Positions 8,341-26,243 of a stretch of DNA of 64,000 nucleotides are shown in pieces. The stretch is from a bacterium. GTDB taxonomy: Bacteria > Hinthialibacterota > Hinthialibacteria > Hinthialibacterales > Hinthialibacteraceae. A program made the position numbers and the translations under genes. The DNA lies in contig CAXXSM010000130.1 of the NCBI GenBank assembly GCA_963663405.2, positions 64,001 through 128,000 of the forward strand. Direction: 5' to 3'. Numbering within the stretch: the first letter of the stretch is position 1; every line of letters begins with the position of its first letter. Under the pieces are notes generated by a model, which saw only the letters and a program-made list of their open reading frames with translations, was not told the origin of the DNA and searched no databases.

Positions 8341-8353
8341 CAAAAGGAGCCGT

Positions 8354-11128
8354 ATGATGGTGTTACTCCATAACTCATTTATTCTATTCGTCTTAGCATT
8401 CACTATGATAACATCCGTAATCCCTTCTCACGCGGCTGTTACATCCGAAACGCCAACAGAAACCCCAATTGAAATCCCAACGGGAACGCCCACCCCCAAA
8501 CCGCCTCTCTCCGATCGTTTCAATATCCCCCCAGATGAGAATCACGAGTTGAAACGGCTCGTTCGGGATATGTCTCCAGATGTCTGTTTAGCGGTCCAAG
8601 CGGAAACAGGGGATTTATATTGCATGGATCGGGCCAACGATGACCGGGTAGAAATCCATAAAATCTCTCTAGATCAAATCGATCAAGTCCGATCGGAGAT
8701 GAACAGCGGCTTAGTATATTCTCTAGATTTAGATGTAAGGCGATCTTTAATCGATCTTGTCGTGGATTCTGATGAAACTGTCTATGCTTTGTATCGCGTT
8801 AATGAAAAGAATTGGATATTGGTATTCAATTCTGTCAATGAGTTGAATAAGAGTATTCAACTCGGTTTTACCAAAAAAATGCACATTGTTGAAGATGACG
8901 ATCTGATCTCCGGCGCCAATCCGTCAGAGATTCTATTGTTCTACAATCAGCATCGTAACAATCGAATCCTTCGATATGATCCAAAGGGAAATCAGCCACT
9001 CACTACATTACTCGATCTTAGAAAGACAAACATTTGTGATTTTATCATCGGGCGTCATAACTCTCTCTGTTTTTTAGCCAAGGACGAGTCCTCTTTTACA
9101 AGAATCATGATGTATGAATACAATCAGTGGAGAGAATTGACACCCAATGGAATCCTTCCGGATTCTAGCCCTCGCAAATTCGCCTATTTGGAAATGGAAA
9201 AATCATTCTATACCGTCGTGGAACATGGATACAATAAATTTTTACTCTTCCGTGTTTATGGCGATGGAGCCGTGGCCGGGAAGGTGGGAGAGATCGGATC
9301 TGTCCACAGCATGGTCTCTTCCAAAGATGGAAGGAGTCTTTATTTTACGAATCCTACGTCCGATGATGGATCGGTTATCTATGCGTTGTCGTATACGGGA
9401 CCGGATGTCACTCCGACTCCCTCCTTTACACCGACAAACACTCTAACTCCCTCCTTTACTCCAACCATCACGCCGACACCCACAATCACACCAACTCCCA
9501 CCATCACGCCGACCTATACTCCAACGCCGACCTATACTCCCACGCCGACATTTGGACCCATTCAATTGAGTGACGATCGGTTTGAGGTTGATCTCCTCAT
9601 TAATCATATTGGTGAACATGCTTTCCTCGCCGTCCATCCAAACACGGGAAACTTGGTTTTCCAGAGAGATTGGTATTCGAGAAGTCCCTATTCATTGCCT
9701 GCTTCAAGCAATCCAATAGATCTTAGACAAAAACAAATTAAACCAATATTCTACATCGATAAATCAGTCTCTTTTCTTTTGTATGCTGTACATCCGGATG
9801 GGTGGTTGTATGGTATTGATCGGAATTATCAAGTGCAGAGATTGAAACAAAATGGCGTATTGGATCGTGGCTTTAGATTATCTGAGGACTTTTTTCATAC
9901 CATGCATATTGTACGTGAAAACGATAGCATACCCGGCGTCACTAAAGGAGATGTACTAATCTTGACAGAAAAAGAAGATCAGACAACAAGAATTTGGAAA
10001 ATCAATCATAATGAAACTTCCACTCATGTTCCCTTTTTGGAATTGTACTTATCAGATGCGGATCTCCCGGTTTGTCCTTTGGACTGGACAATTGGACCAG
10101 GCGGAAATCTCTATTTATTATCATATGATTTGGGAGTAAGTGATCGATACAAACTCTACCGCTTGGATATGGATAAAAAGTTAAGAAATATGTTTTCTTT
10201 TCCTCTTGAAAAGAAATACTACGCAATCACATATCTCCCTGTCGATCGTGCTTTCTTCTTATTAAAGGAAAGATACATTCAAAGAATCTCAGATGATGGT
10301 TCTGAAGTTTCTATGATTGGGTATTCAGGAGGATCAATATATGATTTAACAGTATCGTTGGATGGAAGATCAATTTATTTATTATATAATGATTCCGGGT
10401 CAGGTGAATTGAATTCCATCCAAGCCCTCCGGCTAAAAGGAGATAAACCCACCTCGACTCCCATTCCCGGCTGGTTCGTCCTCGACGGATACGGCGGCGT
10501 CCATTCATCCAATCCAGAACTCGAACGTCCCATTCTCCCCTATTTCGCCCCATACAATATTGTTAGGGATATCGAACCGGATCCATTAGGCCGTGGATGG
10601 TATATGCTGGACGGCCTGGGTGGGATTCACACTTCTTCCCCCGATTTGCCGTATCCCATCGGGCTACCCTACTTTGACTTCGACATCGCTCGCAACCTTG
10701 AAATTGTCTCAACGGAGAATGGTCTCGAATTCTACATGCTGGATGGATTCGGAACCATTCACACCTCGACGGGTGAGCCGTTTGATTACGGATATCTACC
10801 TTGGTTTGGAATTGATCTCGCCCGTGATCTTGAACCTGATCCAGAATTCGGTGGGTGGTTTATTCTAGATGGATTCGGATTCTTGTACTTCAGTTATTGG
10901 CCCGAATCTGACTATCCTTTGGGACAGTCGTTCCCAAATGATCCCATAGCCCGTGGCATGGTCCGTTTCCCCGATGAAACCACAGTTATCATCGACGGCT
11001 TTGGAGGCCGTCACACCAATCCATTCTACCCCGCCGTGGATGTCGTCGAGGGGCTTCCCCCCGAATTCTACTTCTGGGGATTCGACATCATCTGGGATAT
11101 CGAAACCGTCCCAGAAAATATGCAATAA
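8354..11128 (+). CDS. Modular secreted protein (module B + module A + shared C-terminal domain)
   Basis: AAGGAG then ATG at 8354; the ORF-track start at 8144 overlaps the previous gene. N-terminus closely resembles that of the 5551 ORF. Confidence 0.85.
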   Translation: MMVLLHNSFILFVLAFTMITSVIPSHAAVTSETPTETPIEIPTGTPTPKPPLSDRFNIPPDENHELKRLVRDMSPDVCLAVQAETGDLYCMDRANDDRVEIHKISLDQIDQVRSEMNSGLVYSLDLDVRRSLIDLVVDSDETVYALYRVNEKNWILVFNSVNELNKSIQLGFTKKMHIVEDDDLISGANPSEILLFYNQHRNNRILRYDPKGNQPLTTLLDLRKTNICDFIIGRHNSLCFLAKDESSFTRIMMYEYNQWRELTPNGILPDSSPRKFAYLEMEKSFYTVVEHGYNKFLLFRVYGDGAVAGKVGEIGSVHSMVSSKDGRSLYFTNPTSDDGSVIYALSYTGPDVTPTPSFTPTNTLTPSFTPTITPTPTITPTPTITPTYTPTPTYTPTPTFGPIQLSDDRFEVDLLINHIGEHAFLAVHPNTGNLVFQRDWYSRSPYSLPASSNPIDLRQKQIKPIFYIDKSVSFLLYAVHPDGWLYGIDRNYQVQRLKQNGVLDRGFRLSEDFFHTMHIVRENDSIPGVTKGDVLILTEKEDQTTRIWKINHNETSTHVPFLELYLSDADLPVCPLDWTIGPGGNLYLLSYDLGVSDRYKLYRLDMDKKLRNMFSFPLEKKYYAITYLPVDRAFFLLKERYIQRISDDGSEVSMIGYSGGSIYDLTVSLDGRSIYLLYNDSGSGELNSIQALRLKGDKPTSTPIPGWFVLDGYGGVHSSNPELERPILPYFAPYNIVRDIEPDPLGRGWYMLDGLGGIHTSSPDLPYPIGLPYFDFDIARNLEIVSTENGLEFYMLDGFGTIHTSTGEPFDYGYLPWFGIDLARDLEPDPEFGGWFILDGFGFLYFSYWPESDYPLGQSFPNDPIARGMVRFPDETTVIIDGFGGRHTNPFYPAVDVVEGLPPEFYFWGFDIIWDIETVPENMQ

Positions 11129-12776: not shown

Positions 12777-13650
12777 GTGGAGAATATGCAATTTTTCCAC
12801 GGAGTGGTAAATGTACATCTTATTATTATAAGAACACTGCCATACTGGTCTTTCGTATCATTTAAAATGTGTCTCAATTCATTTGTGATACATTGTTTGT
12901 AAGTAGGAATAATAGTGTTATAAATATTTAATTATATTGTTTTATTGGACTTAGATTCTTCCTATATAGAATTCGCTTTAGCGTTTTTATATCGATTCGA
13001 TTCTGGTTGTATCATTTCTAGTTGTTTTGAGACAGTTTTTGGTCGATTTATTCAAATAGAGATTTAGCACGGAATACATTGAATTGATTATGTTTACGAG
13101 AATTTATTCGAAATTTTAGAATTGATTTATATCTGGTATAGTTTTTGTATTATTTAATCAAACAATAAAGAAATCCCAATAAACTTGATGTATAATTTTT
13201 TAGTAGTATCATACGATTTTTAGATTAAATAAGTTTTCTTTTTTTGGGGATGTCAGGAACAGAGCAGTGTAAGAATGGAAAACGTTCATTGACTGTACCC
13301 AAATATGTATTAATAAAAAATAACCCCTTTTCAACCATAAGGAAAGGTGCTATGGTAGTATAATTGATTAAATTTTTGATGTTGTTTTTGTTTTTTGTGA
13401 TATAATATTTATAAGTTTTTAAATGCAGTGGATAGAAAGATTGTTTTTTATAATTGTAATTATTCATTGCACTTTATTTTTAATTTAAAAAAGAGCACGC
13501 ATTTACTGTAAATGTTTAATCGTTTTTTTTTACTATCGAAAAGGAGGTGTAAAAAATTTTTAGTAGAAATATGCTCTTTTTTAGGGTTGATTAATACGTT
13601 GTATTTGATTTGATTTTGATAGTGTTGAACTTGAGAGTATTTATTATAAA

Positions 13651-13725
13651 GTGGAAGTGATGATCTGTTCTTTTTTAATTGGTCGCCAAGAAAAGGGCAG
13701 GGAGCTAGTGGCGAATCCCCTCCAC
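13651..13725 (+). ncRNA. c-di-GMP-II-like riboswitch aptamer, copy 1
   Basis: GTGGA/TCCAC P1, TGA/GA kink-turn, stem TCTGTTCTTTT/AAAAGGGCAGG, pseudoknot TCGCCA/TGGCGA; 40 nt upstream of ATG. Confidence 0.75.
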
Positions 13726-13765
13726 GCAATCAAATAGTAAACGATTACGTTAAGGAGGATTACTA

Positions 13766-14737
13766 ATGTATAAGAGTAAAATTTCCATTCTTCTGTTTAT
13801 TGGGGCTGTCAGTTTAGTATTGGCCCCGGTGTGCTCAGCACAGACGCCTACGCCTATACCAAATCCTGGTTCTCCCGTTCCTTGGTGTGATAAGGATTTC
13901 ATGGTTCATTTTAATAACGCAGGGCAGGGATATAGTGGGGATAGCTATTTTCTTTCTATATTCCAAGGAGCCTCTCCGGTTCCTGAAAGTGATTTTTCTG
14001 ATTGGTTTTGGAATACATTTATCAATGATCCAAATTATCAAGATGTATTGGACCTTTGGCTCATACAAGTGAATGCCGTTGTTGATCCCGATATTACAAT
14101 GGATGATCTTAAAACAGGGCTGTATCAAATGATGCATGATTTACTGTATGGGACTCCAGCTCCTCCTCCTATCACCTTGATTCCTGGAAGCCATTTTCCA
14201 GGATGGTGTATCGACTTATCAAAAAAGATACAATTGAATTATTGGCATTACTGTCCTTGGGTGCAGCGGACAATAAATGCGAATATGCTTCTTCCGTTTA
14301 GCTCACCAGTTGATCCAAACCTTAACGCTTGGTGCAATAATCCAGCAAATCTAGTTAAAGTGAATTATCTGCTTTCCGAATGGCGTAGAAATGCAATGGT
14401 TGATTTTGGATTGGGTTTCGAACCTTCGTGGCAGGAAATACAAGCGGCGATTTGGATACTGTTAGATGAAAATGTTGGTGGAAATCCATCCGGTCCGGAT
14501 CCCGATCCCAGCGATCCCAATCCAGCATTGCGTGGATATATTACCTGGGATGTCAATAATGTGGATGATGTAATTGCTGCAATAAATGCGAAACCTTCGA
14601 GTTTTTACGATAATTTGTTATTGTTCCAACTCTATCGTGTGTGTGTTATTGTATATAATGGTGATACAGAACAACGTACGCTGGTTGAGATGGAAGCCTT
14701 TTTATACTACATGTTGATGCAGTATGGCTTGATTTAA
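13766..14737 (+). CDS. Secreted thioester-domain (TED/TQXA-like) protein, copy 1
   Basis: Signal peptide; GWC148IDL, IQ226AAIW230 and EQ303RTLV motifs; GGAGG RBS. Confidence 0.7.
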   Translation: MYKSKISILLFIGAVSLVLAPVCSAQTPTPIPNPGSPVPWCDKDFMVHFNNAGQGYSGDSYFLSIFQGASPVPESDFSDWFWNTFINDPNYQDVLDLWLIQVNAVVDPDITMDDLKTGLYQMMHDLLYGTPAPPPITLIPGSHFPGWCIDLSKKIQLNYWHYCPWVQRTINANMLLPFSSPVDPNLNAWCNNPANLVKVNYLLSEWRRNAMVDFGLGFEPSWQEIQAAIWILLDENVGGNPSGPDPDPSDPNPALRGYITWDVNNVDDVIAAINAKPSSFYDNLLLFQLYRVCVIVYNGDTEQRTLVEMEAFLYYMLMQYGLI

Positions 14738-14767
14738 ATGACCATTTAGGTTGTTAGCGAGTTGAAG

Positions 14768-14798
14768 AAAGGGGATCATTCAAAATGATCCCCTTTTT
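14768..14798 (+). terminator. Intrinsic terminator
   Basis: AAAGGGGATCATT-loop-AATGATCCCCTTT hairpin with T tail. Confidence 0.8.
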
Positions 14799-14799
14799 A

Positions 14800-14887
14800 T
14801 ATGATAATGAGTTTCAAAGACTTACTCGTTCTAGATTTCACCCGTAACTCATTTTCGCGTTGTGATCTCAACATGATGGTTTATGCG
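14800..14887 (+). mobile_element. Degenerate copy of dispersed ~95-bp MITE-like element
   Basis: ATGATAATGAGT...ACTCATTTTC followed by the tail TTGTGATCTCAACATGATGGTTTATGCG, as in the copies at 18067, 29887 and 39133. Confidence 0.6.
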
Positions 14888-15527
14888 AAACGGTTCTTAT
14901 ATGGCCAATCTGCAAATACATCTTTTTAATAGCTTTCATGTACGGGTGGAAACTTTTATGGATTCTTCAATTTGAAGATTTTGTAGAAACCAATTATTGA
15001 TTGAATCAGACAAACTTCTAATTTTGATTTTCAATTCATGTTTTTTGTATGTTTTTTATATTTCATATGATTTAACACTAATGAAATAAATTGAGTTGAA
15101 TAAGGTGTTTAGGATTTTCCATTCCATTCTATTCTTCCTTTGATGTAACGTTTTTTTCTGCATTAATTTAGTTTCAATTCTATCGATTTAAAGGATTTTG
15201 TGTAATAAATTAGTCATGTAAAAGGTTGTTCGACGAATAAAAAATACATAAAAACCTCTTTTCATTAATAAAAATTATGCTATAGTAATAGTAGTTAACA
15301 TTATATTCCTGATGCGTTGATCTTGTGTGGTGAGTATATTCTTATCTCGTTTTTTTTTGCTTGTAATGAAATATTGCATTTTATCTGTGGGTCTTTTTCT
15401 ATAATAAGTTCGTACAAATCGATATCAAAAGGAGAATTGCATGACAAAAATGATTGGATTTCTTTTTTAATATTTTTGTATTGAAGGTTGAGGTGATAGT
15501 GAGTTCCTTATTTGAATAATAATTATA

Positions 15528-15603
15528 GTGGAAGCGTTGAACCATTTTTTCTTTAATTGGTCGCCAATAGAAGAATGGGAAGCAAGTGGCGAACCCCCTC
15601 CAC
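15528..15603 (+). ncRNA. c-di-GMP-II-like riboswitch aptamer, copy 2
   Basis: Same core as copy 1 with a compensatory stem CCATTTTTTCT/AGAAGAATGG. Confidence 0.75.
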
Positions 15604-15645
15604 GCAATCGAAATCTTAAAATGATTACGTTCAGGAGGATTTAAA

Positions 15646-16617
15646 ATGTATAAGAAAGTAATACCCAGTCTTTTCATCATAGGGGCTGTCGGCCTTCTCT
15701 TGGCGCCGTTTAGCTCAGCCCAGACACCTACTCCATTGCCGAATCCTGGTTCTCCCGTTCCTTGGTGTGATAAGGATTTCATGGTTCATTTTAATAACGC
15801 AGGGCAGGGATATAGTGGGGATAGCTATTTTCTTTCTATATTCCAAGGAGCCTCTCCGGTTCCCGAAAATGATTTTTACGATTGGTTTTGGAATACATTT
15901 ATTAATAATCCAAATTATCAAGATGTATTGGACCTTTGGCTCATACAAGTGAATGCCGTTGTCGATCCCGATATTACAATGGATGATCTTAAAGCGGGGC
16001 TGTATCAAATGATGCATGATTTACTGTATGGAACTCCAGCTCCTCCTCCTATCACCTTGATACCTGGAACCCATTTTCCAGGATGGTGTATCGACTTATC
16101 AAAAAAGATACAATTGGATTACTGGCATTACTGTCCTTGGGTGCAGCGGACAATAAATGCGAATATGCTTCTTCCGTTTAGCGCGCCAGTTGAGCCAAAC
16201 CTTAACGCTTGGTGCAATAACCCAGCAAATCTAGTTAAAGTGAATTATTTGCTTTCCGAGTGGCGTAGAAACGCAATGGCTGATTTTGGATTGGGTTTCG
16301 AACCTGCGTGGGAGGAAATACAAGCGGCGATTTGGATTCTGATAGATGAAAATGTTGCTGGAAATCCATCCGGTCCGGATCCCGATCCCAGCGATCCCAA
16401 TCCAGCATTGCGTGGATATATTACCTGGGATGTCAATAATGTGGATGATATTATTGCTGCATTAAATACGAAACCTTCGAGTTTTTACGATAATTTGTTA
16501 TTGTTCCAACTCTATCGTGTGTGTGTTATTGTATATAATGGTGATACAGAGCAACGTACGATGGTTGAGATGGAAGCCTTTTTATATTATATGTTGATGG
16601 AGTATGGTCTGATTTAA
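15646..16617 (+). CDS. Secreted thioester-domain (TED/TQXA-like) protein, copy 2
   Basis: 323 aa; mature part differs from copy 1 at about 19 residues by eye; same Cys, IQAAIW and Gln motifs. Confidence 0.7.
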   Translation: MYKKVIPSLFIIGAVGLLLAPFSSAQTPTPLPNPGSPVPWCDKDFMVHFNNAGQGYSGDSYFLSIFQGASPVPENDFYDWFWNTFINNPNYQDVLDLWLIQVNAVVDPDITMDDLKAGLYQMMHDLLYGTPAPPPITLIPGTHFPGWCIDLSKKIQLDYWHYCPWVQRTINANMLLPFSAPVEPNLNAWCNNPANLVKVNYLLSEWRRNAMADFGLGFEPAWEEIQAAIWILIDENVAGNPSGPDPDPSDPNPALRGYITWDVNNVDDIIAALNTKPSSFYDNLLLFQLYRVCVIVYNGDTEQRTMVEMEAFLYYMLMEYGLI

Positions 16618-16650
16618 ACGTACGTTTTATGTTTTTTAGTAAGATAAAAG

Positions 16651-16682
16651 AAAGGGGATCAATTCACGATCCTCTTTTTTTA
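16651..16682. terminator. Bidirectional intrinsic terminator
   Basis: AAAGGGGATC-loop-GATCCTCTTT hairpin flanked by A and T tracts, between convergent genes. Confidence 0.7.
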
Positions 16683-16698
16683 TCTTCATTTGACGATT

Positions 16699-17931
16699 TT
16701 AATGCAACCACCAGTTCGCTACACTCGTTCCACACTCGTATGGATTCAGATTTAGTTGAGGAGAAAATGCGAAACCGTTCTGAAAATATTCATCAATCAA
16801 ACCAGTAAAAACTGGTTCACCCAAATGATCTATGAGAATCAATACATCATTCCAATCACCGCAATCTAACAGATTCCCTCGAATATCGAACGCGGTCAAC
16901 TCTGTATTCCCAAGTTCTACATAAGAAGCTATATTCGAGATGGAAGTGATTAGATTGTTCGTACAATCTATATATTTATAAGTGGCGCTTGGATGGATCA
17001 TTAGTTCTTCCAGACGATTATTACTACAAGTAAGATAGCGCAAGGAAACATTGACTGATAGATCAAGGATTTTAAGTTGGTTATTATTGCAAAAAAGAGA
17101 TTTTAAAAGGGGATTCTGAGACACATCCAGAACGTTCAATTGATTGTTATAGCATTCGATATAATCCAACGCTAGGCTTTCCGTCAAATCGAGCGAGGTG
17201 ATCTGATTGTCCGGACAGTAGAGTTTTAATAATGAGGGAAGGTTTGAAACATTCAAATTCTCAAGTTGATTTCGGCTGCAATCGAGATACTGTAAAGATT
17301 CGAGATTCGATACGTCTAAGTGTGTCAAGAGATTATCGTCACAATAGATTTTATTATACGGCGCCTCCTTTGAAAGGATCAGAGAATTGATTTGATTTCT
17401 TTTACAACTAATAAATTCCATCTCAGGATTATTTAATAGATCTAAACTCTCTAATTGATTTTCTATACATTCAAGCTGGTTTAATATGGAATTGCTAGAA
17501 AGATCGAGGGTAGTGATTTGATTCCATGAGCAATACAGAAATTTCAATCGAGTGTTTTCTGAAACGTCTAAACTACTAATCAAATTATGGGCGCAACTCA
17601 GCTCTTTTAAGTCTGTATTATTCCATAAGTCCAAATGGGTCAAGGCGTTGTCTGAACAATTTAATCTGGTGATGTTGGTGAAATACTCGATTCCGGTTAA
17701 ATCTTGAATTTCTTTCCTGACACATAAAAATGATTCTGTGACCGCCGCCACTTGCTCCGCCGTAAATTCCCCGCCAGGATCGACTCCTATATATTCTTCA
17801 ACCACAGTACGAAAATTCGGATCAGGGAAATTTTCCGGTGTGTTGATATTTTGAGCAAGGGAGTCTGCGATTGGAAAGAGAAAAAGAAGAAGAAACGCGG
17901 TTGTTTTGGATGAACTCACAATGTTGAACAT
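16699..17931 (-). CDS. Secreted leucine-rich-repeat protein (internalin-like cap FPDPNFR)
   Basis: 21-aa repeats LxxLxCxxNxLxxLDL; signal peptide; start MFNIV matches paralog MFDIA; ends TSVANWWLH. Confidence 0.9.
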   Translation of the reverse strand: MFNIVSSSKTTAFLLLFLFPIADSLAQNINTPENFPDPNFRTVVEEYIGVDPGGEFTAEQVAAVTESFLCVRKEIQDLTGIEYFTNITRLNCSDNALTHLDLWNNTDLKELSCAHNLISSLDVSENTRLKFLYCSWNQITTLDLSSNSILNQLECIENQLESLDLLNNPEMEFISCKRNQINSLILSKEAPYNKIYCDDNLLTHLDVSNLESLQYLDCSRNQLENLNVSNLPSLLKLYCPDNQITSLDLTESLALDYIECYNNQLNVLDVSQNPLLKSLFCNNNQLKILDLSVNVSLRYLTCSNNRLEELMIHPSATYKYIDCTNNLITSISNIASYVELGNTELTAFDIRGNLLDCGDWNDVLILIDHLGEPVFTGLIDEYFQNGFAFSPQLNLNPYECGTSVANWWLH

Positions 17932-18066
17932 AAATTTTACACCTTTTTTCAAATTGATTTAAGATATATCTAAACTTGACGAAACTTATGACGAAACGGT
18001 GAGAAATCAAATAATCTATTACGAATTCATGGTTGAAACAATGTAAAATTTTCATATGCAGGTTTG

Positions 18067-18161
18067 TATGAAAATGAGTTTCTAGGATTTTCTCCATCGA
18101 GATTTCTTCTGCAACTCATTTTCATTTGCGTGTTGTAATCTCAATCATAATGGTTTATACG
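18067..18161 (+). mobile_element. Dispersed MITE-like element
   Basis: Inverted repeats ATGAAAATGAGT / ACTCATTTTCAT plus a conserved tail; absent from the paralogous region near 23200. Confidence 0.65.
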
Positions 18162-18841
18162 TAACGCTTCTTATATGGCCAATCTGCAAATTCATCTTTC
18201 AAATGGCTTTCATGAAAGGCGGGAAGCCTTTATGGATTCTTCAACCAGAAGAATATGCAGAAACCAATTATTGAGTGGATCAGTCAAAATTCTAATTTCG
18301 ATTTTCATTTCCTATTTTTTATGCGTTTTTTTTATTATATCATGAATTTTATAAGATTCCTGCTGTTTTTTATATTTCATACGATCTTACAGTTTTGTAA
18401 TAAATTGAGTTGAATAAGGTGGTTAGGATCTTCCTTTCAATCCTTTCCTTCCTTGGATGTAACGTTTTTTTCTTTATTAATTTTGTTCTAATTCTATCGA
18501 TTTAAAGGATTCCATGTAAAAATTTTATCATTAAAAAGGTTGTTCGACGAATAAAAAATACAAAAAAGTCTCTTTTCATCAATGAAAATTATACTATAGT
18601 AATAGTAGTTAACATTTTATTTCTGATGCGTTGATCTTGTGTGGTGAGTATATTCTTATCTCGTTTTTCTTTTACTTGTAATGAAATATTCTATTTTTTC
18701 TGTTTGTCTTTTTCTTATATGAGTTCATACAAATCGATAGTAAAAGGAGAATTGCATGATAAAAATGGTAGGATTCCTTTTGTAATATTTTTGTATTGAA
18801 GTTGAGGTAATAGTGAGTTCAATATTTGAATAATAATTACA

Positions 18842-18916
18842 GTGGAAGCATTGAACCATTTTTCTTTAATTGGTCGCCAATAGAAAAATGGGAAGCAAGT
18901 GGCGAACCTCCTCCAC
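18842..18916 (+). ncRNA. c-di-GMP-II-like riboswitch aptamer, copy 3
   Basis: Same core; perfect stem CCATTTTTCT/AGAAAAATGG. Confidence 0.75.
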
Positions 18917-18950
18917 GCAATCAAAAAATGGTTACGTTTTGGAGGTAAGA

Positions 18951-19092
18951 ATGTTTAAGAAATTAATTGTTAGTTTTTGTTTTATAGGAATTACCGGTTT
19001 ATTTCTGTCTCCCATAATCATGGCCCAGTCACCAATATCTTAAACTTTGCCTGTTCCTTGGTGTGGGGTGGATTATCAGGTTGAATTTCTGA
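18951..19092 (+). pseudogene. Truncated TED-protein paralog (signal peptide and first residues only)
   Basis: Hand translation MFKKLIVSFCFIGITGLFLSPIIMAQSPIS*TLPVPWCGVDYQVEF matches PVPWCDKDFMVHF. In-frame TAA at 19041; homology ends at a transposase fragment. Confidence 0.8.
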
Positions 19093-19094
19093 GG

Positions 19095-19280
19095 CGCCAG
19101 TTCACGATGCCAGCGAAGAATCGTATCCAGGGTGAAAATTGTCGAGATTTCCTTCAAAATTTTCCGCTCCAGAGTCTTTCCTTTGACCGCGAGCCGGGCC
19201 CTCTGTTAATCGTTGAGTAGAATATGCTTTTTGCCTTGGACTTCGAGGAGTAACTCGACCTCTGTCGCAGACAAAACGTT
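19095..19280 (-). mobile_element. Transposase remnant (N-terminal part of an integrase-core/rve IS transposase)
   Basis: Hand translation ...[45 protein letters not shown] resembles the LAxKGKxLGRK...[10 protein letters not shown] motif of such transposases; internal stop. Confidence 0.65.
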
Positions 19281-19281
19281 G

Positions 19282-20718
19282 TTAGTGAATGTCCCAGTTT
19301 TTCACTTCTACAGATCCGCCTATTTGAAACGTCTGGTAATACCGTGTAGTAAAACTATTCGGCCCTTCCGGTGGGGAATAAATGAGCATCTCACCAAAAT
19401 TATTGTCAGCGCCTCGTGAGATGACTATGTTCCCAGCCGGATCGAATTGAGCGTCTCGGATCGGATCCGCCCCCGCGATAAACGAGTCAAGTTCCGTACC
19501 ATCATCCATACTTAAGATATACACCATCCCATCAATCCCGTTACCAGAGGCTGCGAACCAACGACGCCCTTCATCTAAATCCAAAGACGGCCGGTCAACA
19601 ATGGCTTCCCATTCGCTCCGCATGAATTGCTCTCCATCTGGTCTAAATCCGTAGAGATCTCCCACCGAAGTCGTTACGTAGATATTTCCCTCAGAATCGG
19701 CAACGAGACTGAAGGGGGGCCCAGCGGCGGGAGGATCATAATTTAAATCCGGATCGAGAAATACTTCAGGAGGAGTCGTCCAGGGAAGCGCGGCGTCATC
19801 GGGTACATTGTATTTCATGATGCTGCCGGGAGTAATGCCGGGCAAGCTATGGTCAATGGTATAAATGACACGTTTCTCTCCCGTGCCCAAGATAAGCATG
19901 TCCGAAATCGTTCCATTCGTTGTAGGCGTTTTGCGGGGTTGGATATCGCCACTGTCTTTTGGCGGCGAATAATCAGCATGTAAGAAGATTTGGAATCCCT
20001 CGTCGGTGAACTCAGAATTACAGATGGTGTTCCACATCGTCCGATTGACATACGTGTTGGTATACACCCGTCCATCCGGCCCGAAGTTAAGCGCAATGGG
20101 CGCGTCATCATTGCTCGCAAAAACAAACGACATGTTGAGTTCCGGGAAAGCCGTGTCCAGCGATCCTCCCCACCAGGTTCCATCCGGAGACATAAAGTAA
20201 ATGCCTTTAAATACGTTTAAAGAATCGATAACCTTCGTTCGATTGACACTATTGCGACGTCCCTGAATGATATAAATTCGTCCAAAATTCGATCTGGATT
20301 GGTCCTTCCCAATTAAAACACCACGAGGACGATGAAAGACGTTTTGGGGATCGACTGGATTGATGCGTTCCCAGCTGGTATGGCCATTGTCCGAAGCGTT
20401 AATTTCAAATGTGTAAGTACCATCGGCAACGACTTGTCCCGCATCATCAAGACCGTCCCAGATAACATGGTTCATACCTTGCGCAGTGGAACCGGACAGC
20501 GTTCGTACAACAACACCATCTGATACACGTAGGATACGTAATTCAACACCGTTATCCGCGGCCTCATTGAGTAAATAATGAAATTCGCCTCCCACGCCTT
20601 CAGTGGAATCGACCTCAACCGACAACTGGCAGGCGAATACATTCGCGTCAGCGGATTTTGGGAGTAAAACAGCCAAACCGAAAATAAACAAATACCCTAA
20701 ATTGGAAAACCGTATCAT
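19282..20718 (-). CDS. Secreted protein, FlgD-Ig-like domain plus beta-propeller-like region
   Basis: Signal peptide; VRTL...WDGLDDAGQVVADGTYTFEI is FlgD-Ig-like; ends VEVKNWDIH. Confidence 0.7.
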   Translation of the reverse strand: MIRFSNLGYLFIFGLAVLLPKSADANVFACQLSVEVDSTEGVGGEFHYLLNEAADNGVELRILRVSDGVVVRTLSGSTAQGMNHVIWDGLDDAGQVVADGTYTFEINASDNGHTSWERINPVDPQNVFHRPRGVLIGKDQSRSNFGRIYIIQGRRNSVNRTKVIDSLNVFKGIYFMSPDGTWWGGSLDTAFPELNMSFVFASNDDAPIALNFGPDGRVYTNTYVNRTMWNTICNSEFTDEGFQIFLHADYSPPKDSGDIQPRKTPTTNGTISDMLILGTGEKRVIYTIDHSLPGITPGSIMKYNVPDDAALPWTTPPEVFLDPDLNYDPPAAGPPFSLVADSEGNIYVTTSVGDLYGFRPDGEQFMRSEWEAIVDRPSLDLDEGRRWFAASGNGIDGMVYILSMDDGTELDSFIAGADPIRDAQFDPAGNIVISRGADNNFGEMLIYSPPEGPNSFTTRYYQTFQIGGSVEVKNWDIH

Positions 20719-20772
20719 GGTTCTTCGTCCTTTCCTTATTTATTTTCCTCTTCATGAATCAAACCACTCAGA

Positions 20773-21600
20773 TTAAGGAACACGAAAATTAGCCGCTTGA
20801 GAGATTTCTTCGGAACTCATCGCTTCCCTGGCATTGGGTGGAAAGGAAAGCAATGCGTCGGCTGTTTCCTTGGCCAATTCACTGTCTGTGGTTTGGATGG
20901 CGAAGTGGATATAGGTAACCGTACTGTTGGCTGGAATCGTTATATCCGTCCAAGCATACCGATAGTCTTCCGAACGCTGGAATACTTCATCGATACCATC
21001 CACTGTTCCATTTGAGTTCCAGACATGACCAACGAAAGGATCACTCCCATCATTGTCACCCGTGATGACATAAGAATCACTGGTTTCCAGTTCCGTATCT
21101 CCGTCGGATGTCGCCACAATATACGTGTGATCATCGGATCCGAGATTGCCGAAAACCGCAATTTCCGCTGAAACCGGTTGATCGGTTGTGTTCGTGAGAA
21201 TTTCCAGCCACCGTCCGTACACTTCCTCTGGAGAAACAAAGAGTTTTCTTTGGACTACCAGAGCCCCCATCGTCTGGGTTTCCCAAACATACTCATTGCC
21301 ATCCGAATCAGGATCGTACTCTTTAATCAAGGCTATATAAGGCCGGAATACCCCATTCTCCCGGACCGCCAGAAAATAGCAGCCGTCATAGGCGTCACTG
21401 CTGCCATCCTCCAGCGCGCCGCTCCTTACACCCGCGTCATAAACCATCCCTTCACCATTCCGTAAATCACCGCATTGGTTGCCGTCTTCATTATCAAATG
21501 GTGGTGGCAGTGTCTGACTGCCCGCATCTACACTCAATAAGAGAATCACCAGCGTTATCCAACTACACCATTGCCATCGTTCATGCTTCATGATGAACAT
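20773..21600 (-). CDS. Secreted hypothetical protein (acidic, beta-rich)
   Basis: 275-aa ORF with hydrophobic N-terminus and GGAG RBS; about 55 bp from the next gene. Confidence 0.7.
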   Translation of the reverse strand: MFIMKHERWQWCSWITLVILLLSVDAGSQTLPPPFDNEDGNQCGDLRNGEGMVYDAGVRSGALEDGSSDAYDGCYFLAVRENGVFRPYIALIKEYDPDSDGNEYVWETQTMGALVVQRKLFVSPEEVYGRWLEILTNTTDQPVSAEIAVFGNLGSDDHTYIVATSDGDTELETSDSYVITGDNDGSDPFVGHVWNSNGTVDGIDEVFQRSEDYRYAWTDITIPANSTVTYIHFAIQTTDSELAKETADALLSFPPNAREAMSSEEISQAANFRVP

Positions 21601-21712
21601 CTCCCTTCATTGATTTAGTATAAGACTGTCAGCTCTCGTACTCTGAATACGAATCTCTCCCCACTAACTGGCAGAAATGCCTTCTATAAATTACAATAAA
21701 TATTATTTATAC

Positions 21713-21742
21713 TAACATAAATTTAACATAACACTAACATAA
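21713..21742. promoter_or_regulatory. Three direct repeats TAACATAA with exact 11-bp period (candidate response-regulator site)
   Basis: Repeats start at 21713, 21724 and 21735, upstream of the 21600(-) gene. Confidence 0.5.
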
Positions 21743-21832
21743 ATAAATTAAGTTAGCAAGACTCCTTACTAAGAATAAAGATCAATTAATTCATCAAAAA
21801 TGATTTGTGTAGATAGGCTTTTTTTGAGAGAT

Positions 21833-23066
21833 CTAATACAAAAACCCAATGGATGACAGGGGTAGCGCATTCATATGGATTCAGAGTATTTTGCGGTGAA
21901 TAGGCGACTCCATTGTTTAAGAATAGGCCATCTTCATCGAAAAATACTGGTTCCCCAATGTGATTCAACAGTGTCTTCACATCGTTCCAGTCCTCGCAAT
22001 CCAGATTGTTTCTCCGAATATCGATCGCGATTAACACTTCGATGTCTTGTTCTACATAGCCGGCTAGATTGGAGATGGAAGATAATTGGTTATCGTTGCA
22101 AGAGAAGCGTATGAATTTCGCATTTGGATGGATCGTTAATTCGCTTCGCTCGTTATCACCACAACTGAGAAAGGACAGCGATTCATTGGCTGAAAGATCG
22201 AGGATATCGAGCTGGTTTCCACTGCAGAAAAGGGATTGTAGTGCGGGATTTTGATATACATTGAGGATCGGCAATTGGTTGTTTGCGTATTCAAGGTAAT
22301 TTAATTTTGCGCTGTTTCCAAGATCGAGTTCCACGATCTGATTATCCGAGCAATAAAGTTTCTCTAATGAAGAGAGGTGAGATACGTCTAAAGTTAGGAG
22401 TTGATTGCGGTTGCAATCGAGAAATCTCAACTCCTCTAAATTCGACATGTTCAAATGAGTCAGTTGGTTGTCATCGCAGTAGATTTTATCGTACGGCGCT
22501 TGTTTTGAAATCACTAACGTTTTTATTTGATTTCTTTTACAACTGAGATAACACATGTTTGGATTGTTTGGTAAATCTAAACTTTCTAACTGATTCTCAA
22601 GGCATTCAAACTAGACCAAGGCTATATTGTCCGATAGATCGATATTTTTGATGTGGTTCCGATAACAGTACAAGTATTTCAATTTGGGGATATCAGAGAC
22701 ATTGAGACTGCTGATTTGATTGTTGTAACAACTCAAAGTCTTTAAATCGGTGTTGTTCCATAAATCCAGGTGGGTCAAAGCATTGTCAGAACAGTATAGT
22801 TCTTGAAGACTCGTAAAGAATTTAATACCGGTCAAATCCTGAATCTAACTCCCCAGACAGATTAGAGGACCTGTCATCAACGCAACATTTTCCGCTGTAA
22901 ATTCATCGCCCGACTCGACTCTCATGAATACTTCAACCGCTGTGCGGAAATTAGGATCGGGAAAATTATCGGGTGTGTTGATGTTTTGGGGTAAGGAATC
23001 TGCAATTGGAAAGAGAAAGAAAAGAAGAAACACGGTTGTTTTAAATGCGCTTGCGATGTCAAACAT
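21833..23066 (-). pseudogene. LRR protein pseudogene, paralog of 16699-17931
   Basis: Three ORF pieces are in one frame, separated by TAG stops at 22845 and 22611 (E and Q in the paralog). A +1 base at 21840-21844 masks the TPVIHWVLY* end. Confidence 0.85.
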
Positions 23067-23886
23067 AAATTTTACAACTTTCTTCTTAATGGACTAAAGA
23101 TATATCAAAACTTGACGAAACTTAGGACGGAACGGTGAAAAACCGGATACTTTTATTACGAATCTATGGTTGAGGCGCTGTAAATAATTCATTGTTAAGA
23201 GTAATAAACGGTTCTTAAAGTCCAATTTGCAAATTCATCTCCCTTTAGGTCTTCATGTAAGGTGGGAAACCTTGATGGTTTCTTAAGGAGATGAACATGC
23301 ATAAACCGATATTTGAATGAATCTGGTTAAACTTTTCATTTCGATTTTCTGATCATCTTTTTTTATGCGTTACTTATTATATCATGATTTAAAATGACTC
23401 CTTCTGTTTTTCATATTTCATGCGATCTAACAATCATGGAATAAATTGAATTGAATAAGGTGGTTAGGATTTTTCTTCCAGTCATTTCCATTCTAGTGTG
23501 TAACGTTTTATGATTCTAATTTTTTTTAAAAATCTATCGATTTAATTGATTTTATGTTAAAATTTAATTAGAAAAGAGGTTATTCGACAAAAAAAAATAA
23601 CAAAAAAACCTCTTTTCATTAATGAATATTGTGCTATAGTAATAGTAATTAACATTATGTACGGGGTGAATTAACATTCTGTATTGATCAGCGTATATTC
23701 TTGTTCTTATTTTTTATGTAATGAAACATTGCGTTGAATTTGTGTTTGAGTTTCTTTTTTTAAAAATTTGAAAAAAAATGAAAAGGAGAATTGTATGCTA
23801 AAAATGTAGGGATTCCTTCTCTAATTTTATTATGATTTTGGTTGAGGTGATAGTAAAGAAAGTGTTTTTAAAAAAACTTGATTAGA

Positions 23887-23961
23887 GTGGAAACGTTGAA
23901 CTATTCTTCTTTAATTGGTCGCCAACAGAAGAATGGGGAGTCAGTGGCGAACCCCCTCCAC
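23887..23961 (+). ncRNA. c-di-GMP-II-like riboswitch aptamer, copy 4
   Basis: Same core; stem CTATTCTTCT/AGAAGAATGG; different downstream hairpin sequence with the same topology. Confidence 0.75.
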
Positions 23962-23991
23962 GAGATTTTTCTCGCGAAGGAGAGAAGAGAA

Positions 23992-24909
23992 ATGAAGAAA
24001 CGATATGTCGTCTTAGTAAGTTGTATTGTTCTTGGTCTGGCTATGGCGCCAGTCAGTTATTCAACTCCATCAGAAGGGCCTTATTATTATCCTCATTTAG
24101 GTCATCTTTTGGAATTTCCCAATGGGCCGAATTGTACTCCTGGAATTGAAGATTATCAAGTAGACAGTTATTTCGGAGTTTCTATTCTTCCATGTGGTGA
24201 TCTTCCGGGATGGATCAATGATGCGATCAATATTTTTGTCGTCTGGTTTGATACACCATATGGTTTGATAAATAAAAGTCCGCGGGAGAGAATTGAAAAT
24301 GCGATTGGACAATCGCTACCTCCAACACAAGATATTGTCGCATGGATTTTCACGTTTATCGTGCCGCCGGATATTCCACAAAAGGTGATTCCCGGCTGGT
24401 GCGCCAATCTAAGGGACTACGCGAAATTAAACGATGTGTGTTGTGGGCTGACGATTCATGGAACGGTTGATATTTCTCCTTTAGGATTTTTAGATTGGAA
24501 TTGGTGTAACCGTACGTTGACATCCCGCTTTACTACTCCTATGGTCAATCAATCGGGTAATCTGCTCGAAGTGAATTTCCTGATCGATCAGTTCCGTATG
24601 AATTTCGTGATGTATCCGGATTTAAACACTCGCAATATTTCGTGGCGGGCGATTCAGCGTGTGATTTGGGATTTGACACAGGATTTGAGTCTCCCTGGCA
24701 CTCATCAAAATGGTTATATTTGTCTTACAAACAAAGATTTAGAAGATGTAGATATCCTTAAAACATGGATCGCCGGTTTGGATTTAGAGGGCAATATCCC
24801 GATTTGCGCGTTCTGTTATTTGACGATTGTCATCTATTGTGAAGGTGGACAAGAAATTCTCGTCGAAGTGCCGTGGTGGCTGTATCTGATTCTTTACGAT
24901 TTACATTAA
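23992..24909 (+). CDS. Secreted thioester-domain-like protein, divergent copy 3
   Basis: ATG at 23992 starts a signal peptide (MKKRYVVL); IPGWCANL, AIQRVIW and GGQEILVEV align with the motifs of copies 1 and 2. Confidence 0.65.
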   Translation: MKKRYVVLVSCIVLGLAMAPVSYSTPSEGPYYYPHLGHLLEFPNGPNCTPGIEDYQVDSYFGVSILPCGDLPGWINDAINIFVVWFDTPYGLINKSPRERIENAIGQSLPPTQDIVAWIFTFIVPPDIPQKVIPGWCANLRDYAKLNDVCCGLTIHGTVDISPLGFLDWNWCNRTLTSRFTTPMVNQSGNLLEVNFLIDQFRMNFVMYPDLNTRNISWRAIQRVIWDLTQDLSLPGTHQNGYICLTNKDLEDVDILKTWIAGLDLEGNIPICAFCYLTIVIYCEGGQEILVEVPWWLYLILYDLH

Positions 24910-25007: not shown

Positions 25008-26243
25008 TTAATAAACGGTCCAATCCGGCACGGCTGTTTCACAATCGAATGGATCGAGATCGTTTTGTGGAGAATAACCGAATCCATACGTTAATTGTGT
25101 TTGATTCCAAGGAACAAAAACAGGCTCCCCGATTCGATCCAATAATAGAATCACATCCTCCCAATCATCACATTGAAGATTGTTATATCGAACGTCTACA
25201 AGCGCTCCCAACGCGGCGCCGATATATTCATTGCTTACGATATTTGATAGATTCGACAGCTGATTGTTTTGACATTGAAGGGAATTCAAAACAGCGCTAT
25301 TCGGTAAGATAAGTTCTGTCAAGAGATTGTCTTGGCAGATACATTGTCCAAGGGATTCCGCTGATGAAACATCCAATTGCGTTAATTGATTGGAGGAACA
25401 GATTACGGATCCTAGAGCGATATTCTGAGTGAGATCGATCGTATGGAGAAGATTATCGCGGCAATCCAGTGTTTCCAATGTGACGTTGCTCGATAAATCC
25501 AACGTTGTGAGCCGGTTGCTGGCGCAGTTGATTTCGGCGAGGGCCGCGCAGCCGCTTAGTTCGAGTGTTCCCAGCTGATTGTCATAACAATTCAATACTT
25601 CCAAGGATGTGTTGTTAGAGATGTCCAAACTCGCAAGTTGGTTGCTGAAACATTTGAAGGTTTGAAGTTTATCGTTCTCCGATATCGAGAGTTCATTCAA
25701 GCGGTTGCGGCTGCAATCGGCGATTTGAAGTTTTTTGTTGTAGGAGAGATCCAACGTCTCGATTTGATTGATAAAGCAATGAAGATGTTTCAGGTTGGTG
25801 TTGTTGAAAAGTTCGAGACTTGTGAGTTCGTTTTGATCACAGACCAGTATTTTTAATCCAGTGTTTTCATAGAGATATAACTCTGTCAATTGATTCGCGT
25901 GACAGTTCAACTCCTCCAAGGCGGTATTCATTGTTAAATCTATACTTTCCAATAGGTTATTGTTGCATATAAGTTTGGTTACATTAGGGAAAAAATGAAT
26001 GCCGGCCAAGGAACTGATCTCACGGGCTGGACATTCCAAGGCCTTTGTGGCCGCCGCCGCTTCTTCCGCCGTGAAAGCGCCGTCTGACTCAACCTCCATA
26101 TATTCCTCAACCGCCGCCCGGAAATTTGGATCGGGAAAATTCTCTTCTGTGTTGATGTTTTGCGCGAAGGAATGAATGCTTGTTAAGGCCAGAAGTAGAA
26201 TCAGAAAAGCAGTTTTCCCAGAATTCTTACATACGTTCATCAT
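25008..26243 (-). CDS. Secreted leucine-rich-repeat protein
   Basis: Same AQNINTxENFPDPNFR cap and 21-aa LRRs; ends TAVPDWTVY. Confidence 0.9.
   Translation of the reverse strand: MMNVCKNSGKTAFLILLLALTSIHSFAQNINTEENFPDPNFRAAVEEYMEVESDGAFTAEEAAAATKALECPAREISSLAGIHFFPNVTKLICNNNLLESIDLTMNTALEELNCHANQLTELYLYENTGLKILVCDQNELTSLELFNNTNLKHLHCFINQIETLDLSYNKKLQIADCSRNRLNELSISENDKLQTFKCFSNQLASLDISNNTSLEVLNCYDNQLGTLELSGCAALAEINCASNRLTTLDLSSNVTLETLDCRDNLLHTIDLTQNIALGSVICSSNQLTQLDVSSAESLGQCICQDNLLTELILPNSAVLNSLQCQNNQLSNLSNIVSNEYIGAALGALVDVRYNNLQCDDWEDVILLLDRIGEPVFVPWNQTQLTYGFGYSPQNDLDPFDCETAVPDWTVY

Follow-up and report, generated by a model that had tools for sequence, protein, structure and literature searches.

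Four aptamers of the c-di-GMP-II riboswitch fold with changed pocket bases in a Hinthialibacterota genome

The stretch of DNA analyzed here, hereafter the window, covers 64,000 nucleotides (nt) of a contig from a bacterium of the phylum Hinthialibacterota (CAXXSM010000130.1, positions 64,001 to 128,000; assembly GCA_963663405.2) and carries four copies of an RNA element that are confirmed to match the c-di-GMP-II fold, the fold of the class II riboswitches for cyclic di-guanosine monophosphate (c-di-GMP). Judging from their sequences, they are best read as a rare pocket variant of this known fold, within a subgroup whose pseudoknot is GGUCGCC/UGGCGA. From the genomic context, we infer that this variant still senses c-di-GMP with an altered pocket, a reading to which we give a probability of about 0.5. 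Each copy would form the 5′ end of a secreted-protein mRNA and would act on translation.

Four aptamers of the c-di-GMP-II fold

The preliminary description of this DNA had claimed four motifs of about 75 nt, starting at 13651, 15528, 18842 and 23887, and had recognized in them the layout of class II c-di-GMP aptamers. All four are present at these positions, on the + strand, as P1-to-P1 elements (GTGGA to TCCAC) of that length, and the pattern TGGTCGCCAA..RTGGCGAAYC has four matches in the window compared to 0.00 expected (100 shuffles). With cmscan in E-value mode, RF01786 (c-di-GMP-II) is the best Rfam family for the four copies and aligns with them over the full length of the model: copy 1 (13651..13725, alignment 13644-13732) at 43.8 bits (E 5.1e-7), copy 2 (15528..15603, alignment 15521-15609, tail GGCGAACCCCCU-CCAC) at 33.9 bits (E 3.3e-4), copy 3 (18842..18916, alignment 18835-18922, tail GGCGAACCUCCU-CCAC) at 35.2 bits (E 1.4e-4) and copy 4 (23887..23961, alignment 23880-23968, tail GGCGAACCCCCU-CCAC) at 39.3 bits (E 9.5e-6). 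No copy reaches the gathering score of this family (33.9-43.8 bits, E 5e-7 to 3e-4, for a score of 53.5), nor those of the two variant models, RF03170 (c-di-GMP-II-GCG; 35.6-38.3 bits for 47.9) and RF03169 (c-di-GMP-II-GAG; 27.9-31.6 bits for 40). Since these scores lie under the thresholds of all three models, standard annotation misses the copies: at gathering thresholds, Rfam finds no RNA family anywhere in the window, and the elements emerge only in E-value mode.

Besides the comparison with these three models, the preliminary description had called for a new covariance model and for a search of covariation in related genomes. The new model, R1, was built from ten good copies of the window's type found in the genome that contains the window (G000; 8.4 Mb in 170 contigs, 82% complete) and gives copies 1 to 4 scores of 93, 91.6, 95.4 and 95.1 bits. 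The architecture is that of c-di-GMP-II, with the succession P1-P2-P3, a kink-turn-like internal loop and a pseudoknot between a loop and the 3′ tail; the RNA is predicted to fold into P1, a kink-turn-like P2 and a long P3 whose loop is joined to the tail. The strands of P1 (GTGGA/TCCAC) are located at 13651-13655/13721-13725 in copy 1, 15528-15532/15599-15603 in copy 2, 18842-18846/18912-18916 in copy 3 and 23887-23891/23957-23961 in copy 4. In the register of the RF01786 alignment, the pseudoknot of copy 1 joins the loop 13683-13688 with the tail 13709-13714. The kink-turn pattern, the P3 that keeps its pairing while its sequence changes and the invariant pseudoknot that had been claimed were all recovered, as a GA/GGA kink-turn-like loop, a covarying P3 and TCGCCA/TGGCGA, respectively.

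The fold was evaluated on an alignment of 27 sequences from the window's genome, four related genomes and the metagenome contig L121, in which the pseudoknot was written in. Standard pairs occupy 91.7% of the cells of this alignment, compared to 41.5-47.4% after shifting the partners by 1-3 columns, 16 of the 24 pairs (including two pseudoknot pairs) show both-sided change, and the observed pairing values were matched by none of 500 shuffles; this alignment, like that of the variant below, is model-fitted and hence biased towards the structure of the model, and the shuffle control ignores relatedness. In the alignment restricted to the 13 sequences of the variant, 93.6% of the cells pair (38.7-52.0% with shifted partners) and all P3 pairs (8/8) show both-sided change; the pseudoknot is invariant among these 13 sequences, and hence does not covary within the variant. 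The 27-sequence alignment thus backs the fold by covariation, pseudoknot included. The notion of a chance resemblance, or of a plain DNA repeat without any RNA function, draws on the duplicated DNA that holds all four copies but is for practical purposes refuted, with a negligible probability left to it, by the number of pattern matches, the full-length covariance-model alignments, the compensatory changes in P3 and P1 both between copies and between genomes, and the fixed distance (30-42 nt) at which the copies precede start codons.

Changed bases in the ligand pocket

In structure 3Q3Z, A13 forms the floor of the pocket and A61 its ceiling, the A14-U60 pair packs on the ligand backbone, A69 reads the upper guanine, A70 is intercalated between the two guanines and the lower guanine is read via O6 of G73 (PMC13715770). 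The consensus tail of RF01786 is AGUgGUGCAACCGgCc; when the count starts from U60, A69, A70 and G73 fall where they should in it. The cmscan alignment agrees with the pseudoknot register, with changes in the loop matched by compensating changes in the tail. The sequence of the window copies in this register is UGGCGA-A-(U/C)-C-C-(N)-C-U-CCAC. For copy 1, this places A69 at 13715, the U at position 70 at 13716, C71-72 at 13717-13718, an extra base at 13719, the C replacing G73 at 13720 and U74 at 13721.

The pocket was counted in the 13 sequences of the variant, i.e. ten from the window's genome and one each from two other genomes of the phylum (G031 and G028) and from L121. A13, A61 and A69 are each present in 13/13. 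Position 70 is U (n = 6) or C (n = 7), positions 71-72 are CC apart from one CU, the extra base is C (n = 10), A (n = 2) or U (n = 1), and the base that follows it and replaces G73 is C (n = 12) or U (n = 1). Position 74, which pairs with A13, is U in 12 sequences and C in one, and position 60, which faces A14, can be occupied by all four bases (G 3, C 4, A 2, U 4). Within the c-di-GMP-II pocket formed by A13, A61, A69, A70 and G73, positions 70 and 73 are therefore changed. The replacement of the ligand-contacting A70 and G73 by pyrimidines, proposed earlier, holds for position 70 (U or C) and in so far as position 73 is not G; however, the tail is one base longer than normal, and what stands in place of G73 is N followed by C. 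Because of this extra base, “73” can be assigned to either the N or the C, neither of which is G. The extra base and the N-C replacing G73 are rare, whereas A70-to-C alone is ordinary in the GGUCGCC/UGGCGA subgroup; the latter change, frequent among metagenomic relatives that in part exceed the RF01786 gathering score, speaks only weakly for a new ligand.

A homopolymer assembly error was considered as the origin of the extra C and rejected. In G031, a U stands at the place of the extra base, and in G028 and in one copy from contig C18 of the window's genome, an A does; moreover, a contig from a run of another study spans 13651-13731 with four substitutions and no insertion or deletion relative to the window. 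The tail is therefore not an assembly artefact.

Distribution of the variant and of its relatives

Among 35 genomes of the phylum (phylum and class are equivalent in this set), five have R1 matches: 22 in the window's genome and one in each of four others, with none in the remaining 30. This is a strong lineage-specific expansion in the window's genome, mostly ahead of genes encoding secreted, leucine-rich repeat (LRR) and PD40 proteins. The approximately 22 elements of the fold in this genome include canonical A-A-G tails (C22, two copies; C23; C38c; C106c), A-Y-G tails, Y being a pyrimidine (C38a, C38b, C106a, C106b), and ten tails of the window's type (the four window copies, C149, C6, C55, the C18 tandem pair and C85). 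Three further copies are degenerate: C27:4911 is devoid of the pseudoknot loop, and C55:4057 and C55:7680 have a broken P1 or tail. The coexistence of three pocket types would fit different ligands or different thresholds. Two tandem triplets, both in the order A-Y-G, A-Y-G, A-A-G, are located ahead of small secreted proteins (G000:C38:19821-20076 and G000:C106:58402-58659), and a tandem pair of the window's type is located at G000:C18:33777-33950.

The window's tail is genuine in three families of the phylum, represented by the window's genome, G031 (95.4 bits) and G028 (85.3 bits); in the last two, the variant is the sole element of the fold that was found. A pattern match in another genome, G012, was rejected as due to chance, as it scores 15.7 bits, lacks the pseudoknot loop and lies in seemingly coding sequence. 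When 185,579 species genomes were scanned with a strict pattern, 53 stretches were returned, two of which, those of G031 and G028, are real; this pattern required CCAA after the loop, and its narrowness means that it under-samples the variant and provides no measure of its rarity among genomes.

The metagenome scan, whose pattern fixed positions 69-72, returned at least 120 stretches, and the 80 loci among the matches listed provide sample frequencies. R1 matches 77 of these 80 loci (79 matches and 75 distinct sequences, nearly all GC-rich and of the A-C-G type). Among the matches listed, position 73 is G in 54, A in 15, C in four and U in one of 74 relatives, and the full tail of the window is found in one of the 75 distinct sequences, L121 (82.4 bits). 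The relatives with A73 could be a specificity variant in their own right. Of twenty loci tested against the Rfam thresholds (17 metagenomic loci among the matches listed, plus L024, L025 and L121), the RF01786 gathering score is reached by five, of which one has C73, the GCG threshold by one and the GAG threshold by two. Loci L102-L181 form a large GC-rich group with the GGUCGCC/UGGCGA pseudoknot and C70, many members of which are under Rfam thresholds.

A putative translational switch

The aptamers lie in 5′ leaders and end 30-42 nt before start codons: those at 13766, 15646, 18951 and 23992 are 40, 42, 34 and 30 nt past copies 1, 2, 3 and 4, respectively. A scan of the window found no terminator-like site between any aptamer and its gene. 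In the expression platform of copy 1 (13720..13758, + strand), the tail CCUCCACG pairs with ..CGU..GGAGG, which includes the Shine-Dalgarno (SD) sequence (13754-13758). The minimum free energy (MFE) fold has this SD sequestered by the 3′ strand of the aptamer, and opening it costs 6.1 kcal/mol. All variant leaders (11/11) have at least three of the four SD bases paired in their MFE fold, which is weak evidence since a purine-rich SD is placed in pyrimidine-rich leaders, and forced SD opening costs 2.7-7.1 kcal/mol in these leaders. In six of the 11 leaders, the SD pairs with the 3′ strand of the aptamer itself (CCUCCAC...), and in the five others, including that of copy 4, with another pyrimidine run. 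The tail-to-SD stems of copies 1-3 are unlike that of copy 4, but the design is common to all. The leader of copy 3 has an MFE z-score of -3.19.

On these predicted folds, the leaders look like translational ON switches in which the C-rich 3′ tail doubles as an anti-SD sequence, the direction of switching being the one that we infer. When the ligand is absent, the SD would be paired, either with the C-rich 3′ strand (CCUCCAC) or with a run of pyrimidines close by; when it is present, P1 and the pseudoknot would hold the C-rich strand, the SD would be free and the gene would be translated. Since the same bases act as the anti-SD in this model, the conservation of C-U-C-C in the tail is explicable without any ligand contact.

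The ligand and the alternative explanations

In the preferred reading, the GGDEF cyclases of the genome would supply c-di-GMP, which would bind to a pocket whose lower half is changed. The C replacing G73 may pair with the lower guanine, possibly with an altered affinity; it could read this guanine through a Watson-Crick pair, and a pyrimidine could stack in the place of A70. The window's genome has nine GGDEF matches, five of them with intact GG(D/E)EF and GHxxGD motifs, G031 has three matches and G028 two. The canonical-pocket copies of the window's genome are likewise located ahead of genes encoding proteins with signal peptides. The presence of GGDEF cyclases, together with the similar genes controlled by canonical-pocket copies, makes the context lean to c-di-GMP; so far, the variant tail does not amount to evidence for a new ligand.

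Several observations weigh against the idea of an altered aptamer that still binds c-di-GMP and controls translation. Both A70 and G73, which contact c-di-GMP in the solved structure (PMC13715770), are changed, and the four copies are all under the gathering scores of RF01786, RF03170 and RF03169. The A-A-G, A-Y-G and window pocket types share one genome, in several copies each. No EAL domain match was found in this genome, which is 82% complete. The SD pairing brings together a purine-rich sequence and pyrimidine-rich leaders. Lastly, contigs with pieces of the gene following copy 1 (13778-14761, identity of at least 99%) were recovered from rhizosphere metatranscriptomes, in one library from each of two studies, but such contigs may derive from DNA in these libraries; those concerned (X6 and X7) do not reach the aptamer.

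The alternative that best survives, possible although we do not favor it, is that the same fold and platform serve a pocket sensing another molecule (3′,3′-cyclic GMP-AMP (cGAMP), pGpG, cyclic di-AMP (c-di-AMP) or an unrelated compound), which would make it a new class. The changed positions 70 and 73 and the extra base are indeed kept in 13 sequences and in three families of the phylum despite the divergence of P3, but a C at the place of G73 could still read guanine, A70-to-C is present in relatives above the RF01786 threshold, and the conserved CUCC is accounted for by the anti-SD role. Variant and canonical-pocket copies coexist in one genome, yet they control genes of the same kind. The GAG and GCG pocket variants already form separate Rfam families, A73 is found in 15 of the 74 metagenomic relatives (among the matches listed), and the class II pocket can be re-tuned, as exemplified by an engineered cGAMP binder (PMC13715770). 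Concerning the supply of such a signal, no match to SMODS, the cGAMP-type synthase, was found in the window's genome (82% complete). The five intact GGDEF domains have the usual Asp in GHxxGD and not the Ser typical of the cGAMP-making Hypr type, to which they would accordingly not belong.

The more specific proposal that the A69/pyrimidine-70/N-C-73 tail marks a natural riboswitch class that left c-di-GMP for another signal appears rather doubtful. If it were true, the variant and the canonical copies beside it would place the display of secreted and LRR surface proteins under two signals. On a wider view, the GGUCGCC/UGGCGA subgroup, in which position 73 can be any of the four bases, would be a sensor family with several specificities.

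A decayed or ligand-independent descendant of c-di-GMP-II, which would mask the SD, act as a thermometer or offer a site to a protein or small RNA and would have been spread by gene duplication, is improbable. It would fit the concentration of copies in one genome (about 22 elements, one in each of four others and none in 30 of the 35), the clearly degenerate copies C27:4911, C55:4057 and C55:7680, and the dead gene headed by one of the window copies. However, A13, A61 and A69 are invariant, and phylum-level divergence has left the pseudoknot and the unpaired bases of the pocket unchanged while the helices covary, a conservation that a bare SD mask would not need.

Putatively controlled genes and their neighborhood

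The preliminary description had placed each element before a paralogous start codon. This is correct for gene 1 (13766..14737, + strand) and gene 2 (15646..16617, + strand; SD 15634-15638), which both encode 323-amino-acid (aa) proteins with a signal peptide that are 91% identical. It also holds, at a greater distance, for gene 4 (23992..24909, + strand; SD 23979-23982), which encodes a 305-aa paralog with a signal peptide (24% identity over 201 aa, E 4e-8). By contrast, gene 3 is a remnant (18951..19043, + strand; SD 18941-18945): its signal peptide is followed by an in-frame TAA after 30 codons, beyond which the motif PVPWC persists. The gene is thus dead, although aptamer copy 3 is intact. 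None of genes 1, 2 and 4 nor the gene 3 remnant matches any Pfam or NCBIfam family, and a search of 5.8 billion proteins with gene 1 retrieved only its window paralog and one 217-aa protein.

Elsewhere in the window's genome, aptamers of the window's type precede genes encoding LRR proteins, a PD40 propeller protein and a 254-aa secreted protein. Relatives of the 254-aa protein are encoded downstream of the variant in G031 (40% identity to the member from the window's genome, E 2e-49), G028 and L121. This family of secreted proteins looks like an old association of the variant, the element having then spread within the window's genome.

A repeated non-coding block of approximately 650-700 nt, about 85% conserved, is found on the + strand upstream of copies 2, 3 and 4 (14872-15520, 18146-18835 and 23222-23880). 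It contains no open reading frame (ORF) of note but a promoter-like TTTTCA-16-TATAGT at 15259, 18573 and 23613 (a promoter scan gave 29 sites compared to 36.1 expected) and an SD with an ATG mini-frame of 4-9 codons (15424-15470 and equivalents), the frame being lost at copy 4. Three genes encoding LRR-repeat proteins are interleaved on the - strand with the riboswitch-controlled genes (16699-17952, 21786-22556 and 25008-26243). They have repeated 5′ regions in common (repeat families D4 and D7), and the R1 search of the window found no aptamer upstream of them. The window also contains a 994-aa ORF (8144-11128, + strand) without any Pfam or NCBIfam family, and a gene for a 478-aa protein (19282-20718, - strand) in which only a FlgD-type Ig-like domain was recognized.

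Significance and comparison with known riboswitches

Riboswitch variants with altered pocket bases have repeatedly proved to sense new ligands. The variant described here is natural, conserved, present in multiple copies and under threshold in all three Rfam models of its clan. Canonical A-A-G and intermediate A-Y-G pockets of the same genome provide internal controls, and the platform, simple and translational, would be easy to test in reporters. If c-di-GMP is still bound, A70 and G73 would be dispensable and the fold would have a second way to read guanine; if not, the variant would be a new riboswitch class. Either way, annotation at Rfam thresholds under-counts this fold in uncultured phyla and in soil metagenomes.

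The c-di-GMP-II riboswitch was reportedly first described by Lee et al. in 2010, structure 3Q3Z is said to come from Smith et al. in 2011, and the GCG and GAG variant motifs reportedly originate from Weinberg et al. in 2017. No earlier description of the variant tail was found in the literature searched, a search that did not include the last two articles. The variant shares with c-di-GMP-II (RF01786) the P1, the kink-turn-like P2, the P3 and the register of the loop-to-tail pseudoknot, the bases A13, A61 and A69, and a location in 5′ leaders of genes encoding surface or secreted proteins. It differs by its scores (33.9-43.8 bits for the window copies, for a gathering score of 53.5), by Y at position 70, N-C in place of G73 and the extra base, by an A13-U74 Watson-Crick pair and an A14 whose partner at position 60 can be any base, by its UCGCCA/UGGCGA pseudoknot and by a short P1 of 4-5 bp. 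Furthermore, it is found in a small uncultured phylum and not in Clostridia. Tandem doublets or triplets are another common feature, found in the window's genome outside the window; for the class as a whole, 59 doublets and nine triplets are reported (PMC9481103).

The consensus tails of the two Rfam variants are AgUGGCGAGCCCGaCC for GCG (G69, C70 and G73) and AgUGGCGAGACCGaCC for GAG (G69, A70 and G73). All three types are defined by altered pocket bases and share the overall fold and the pseudoknot GGUCGCC/UGGCGA, but the window copies read A69, Y70 and N-C for G73, whereas GCG (RF03170) and GAG (RF03169) have G69, G73 and a tail of normal length. An assignment of the window copies to either variant was therefore rejected, since their scores are sub-threshold and both signatures are absent; the common pseudoknot places the window's type in the same subgroup with neither signature. 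The metagenomic “A-C-G” relatives, from soil-type contigs and with GGCGA-ACCCG tails, have the same pseudoknot, A69 and C70 as the window copies. Unlike these, they keep G73 (54/74, among the matches listed) or have A at this position (15/74), their tail is of normal length, their A13 is unpaired and they are GC-rich (61-76%).

The last comparison concerns the engineered c-di-GMP-II-Bh, in which a one-base deletion leads to binding of 3′,3′- and 2′,3′-cGAMP and a single base pair shifts the preference (PMC13715770). It illustrates how small changes in the pocket region can re-tune the choice of cyclic dinucleotide (PMC13715770); unlike the variant of the window, it is not natural but a laboratory deletion variant, and it retains the A-A...G pocket.

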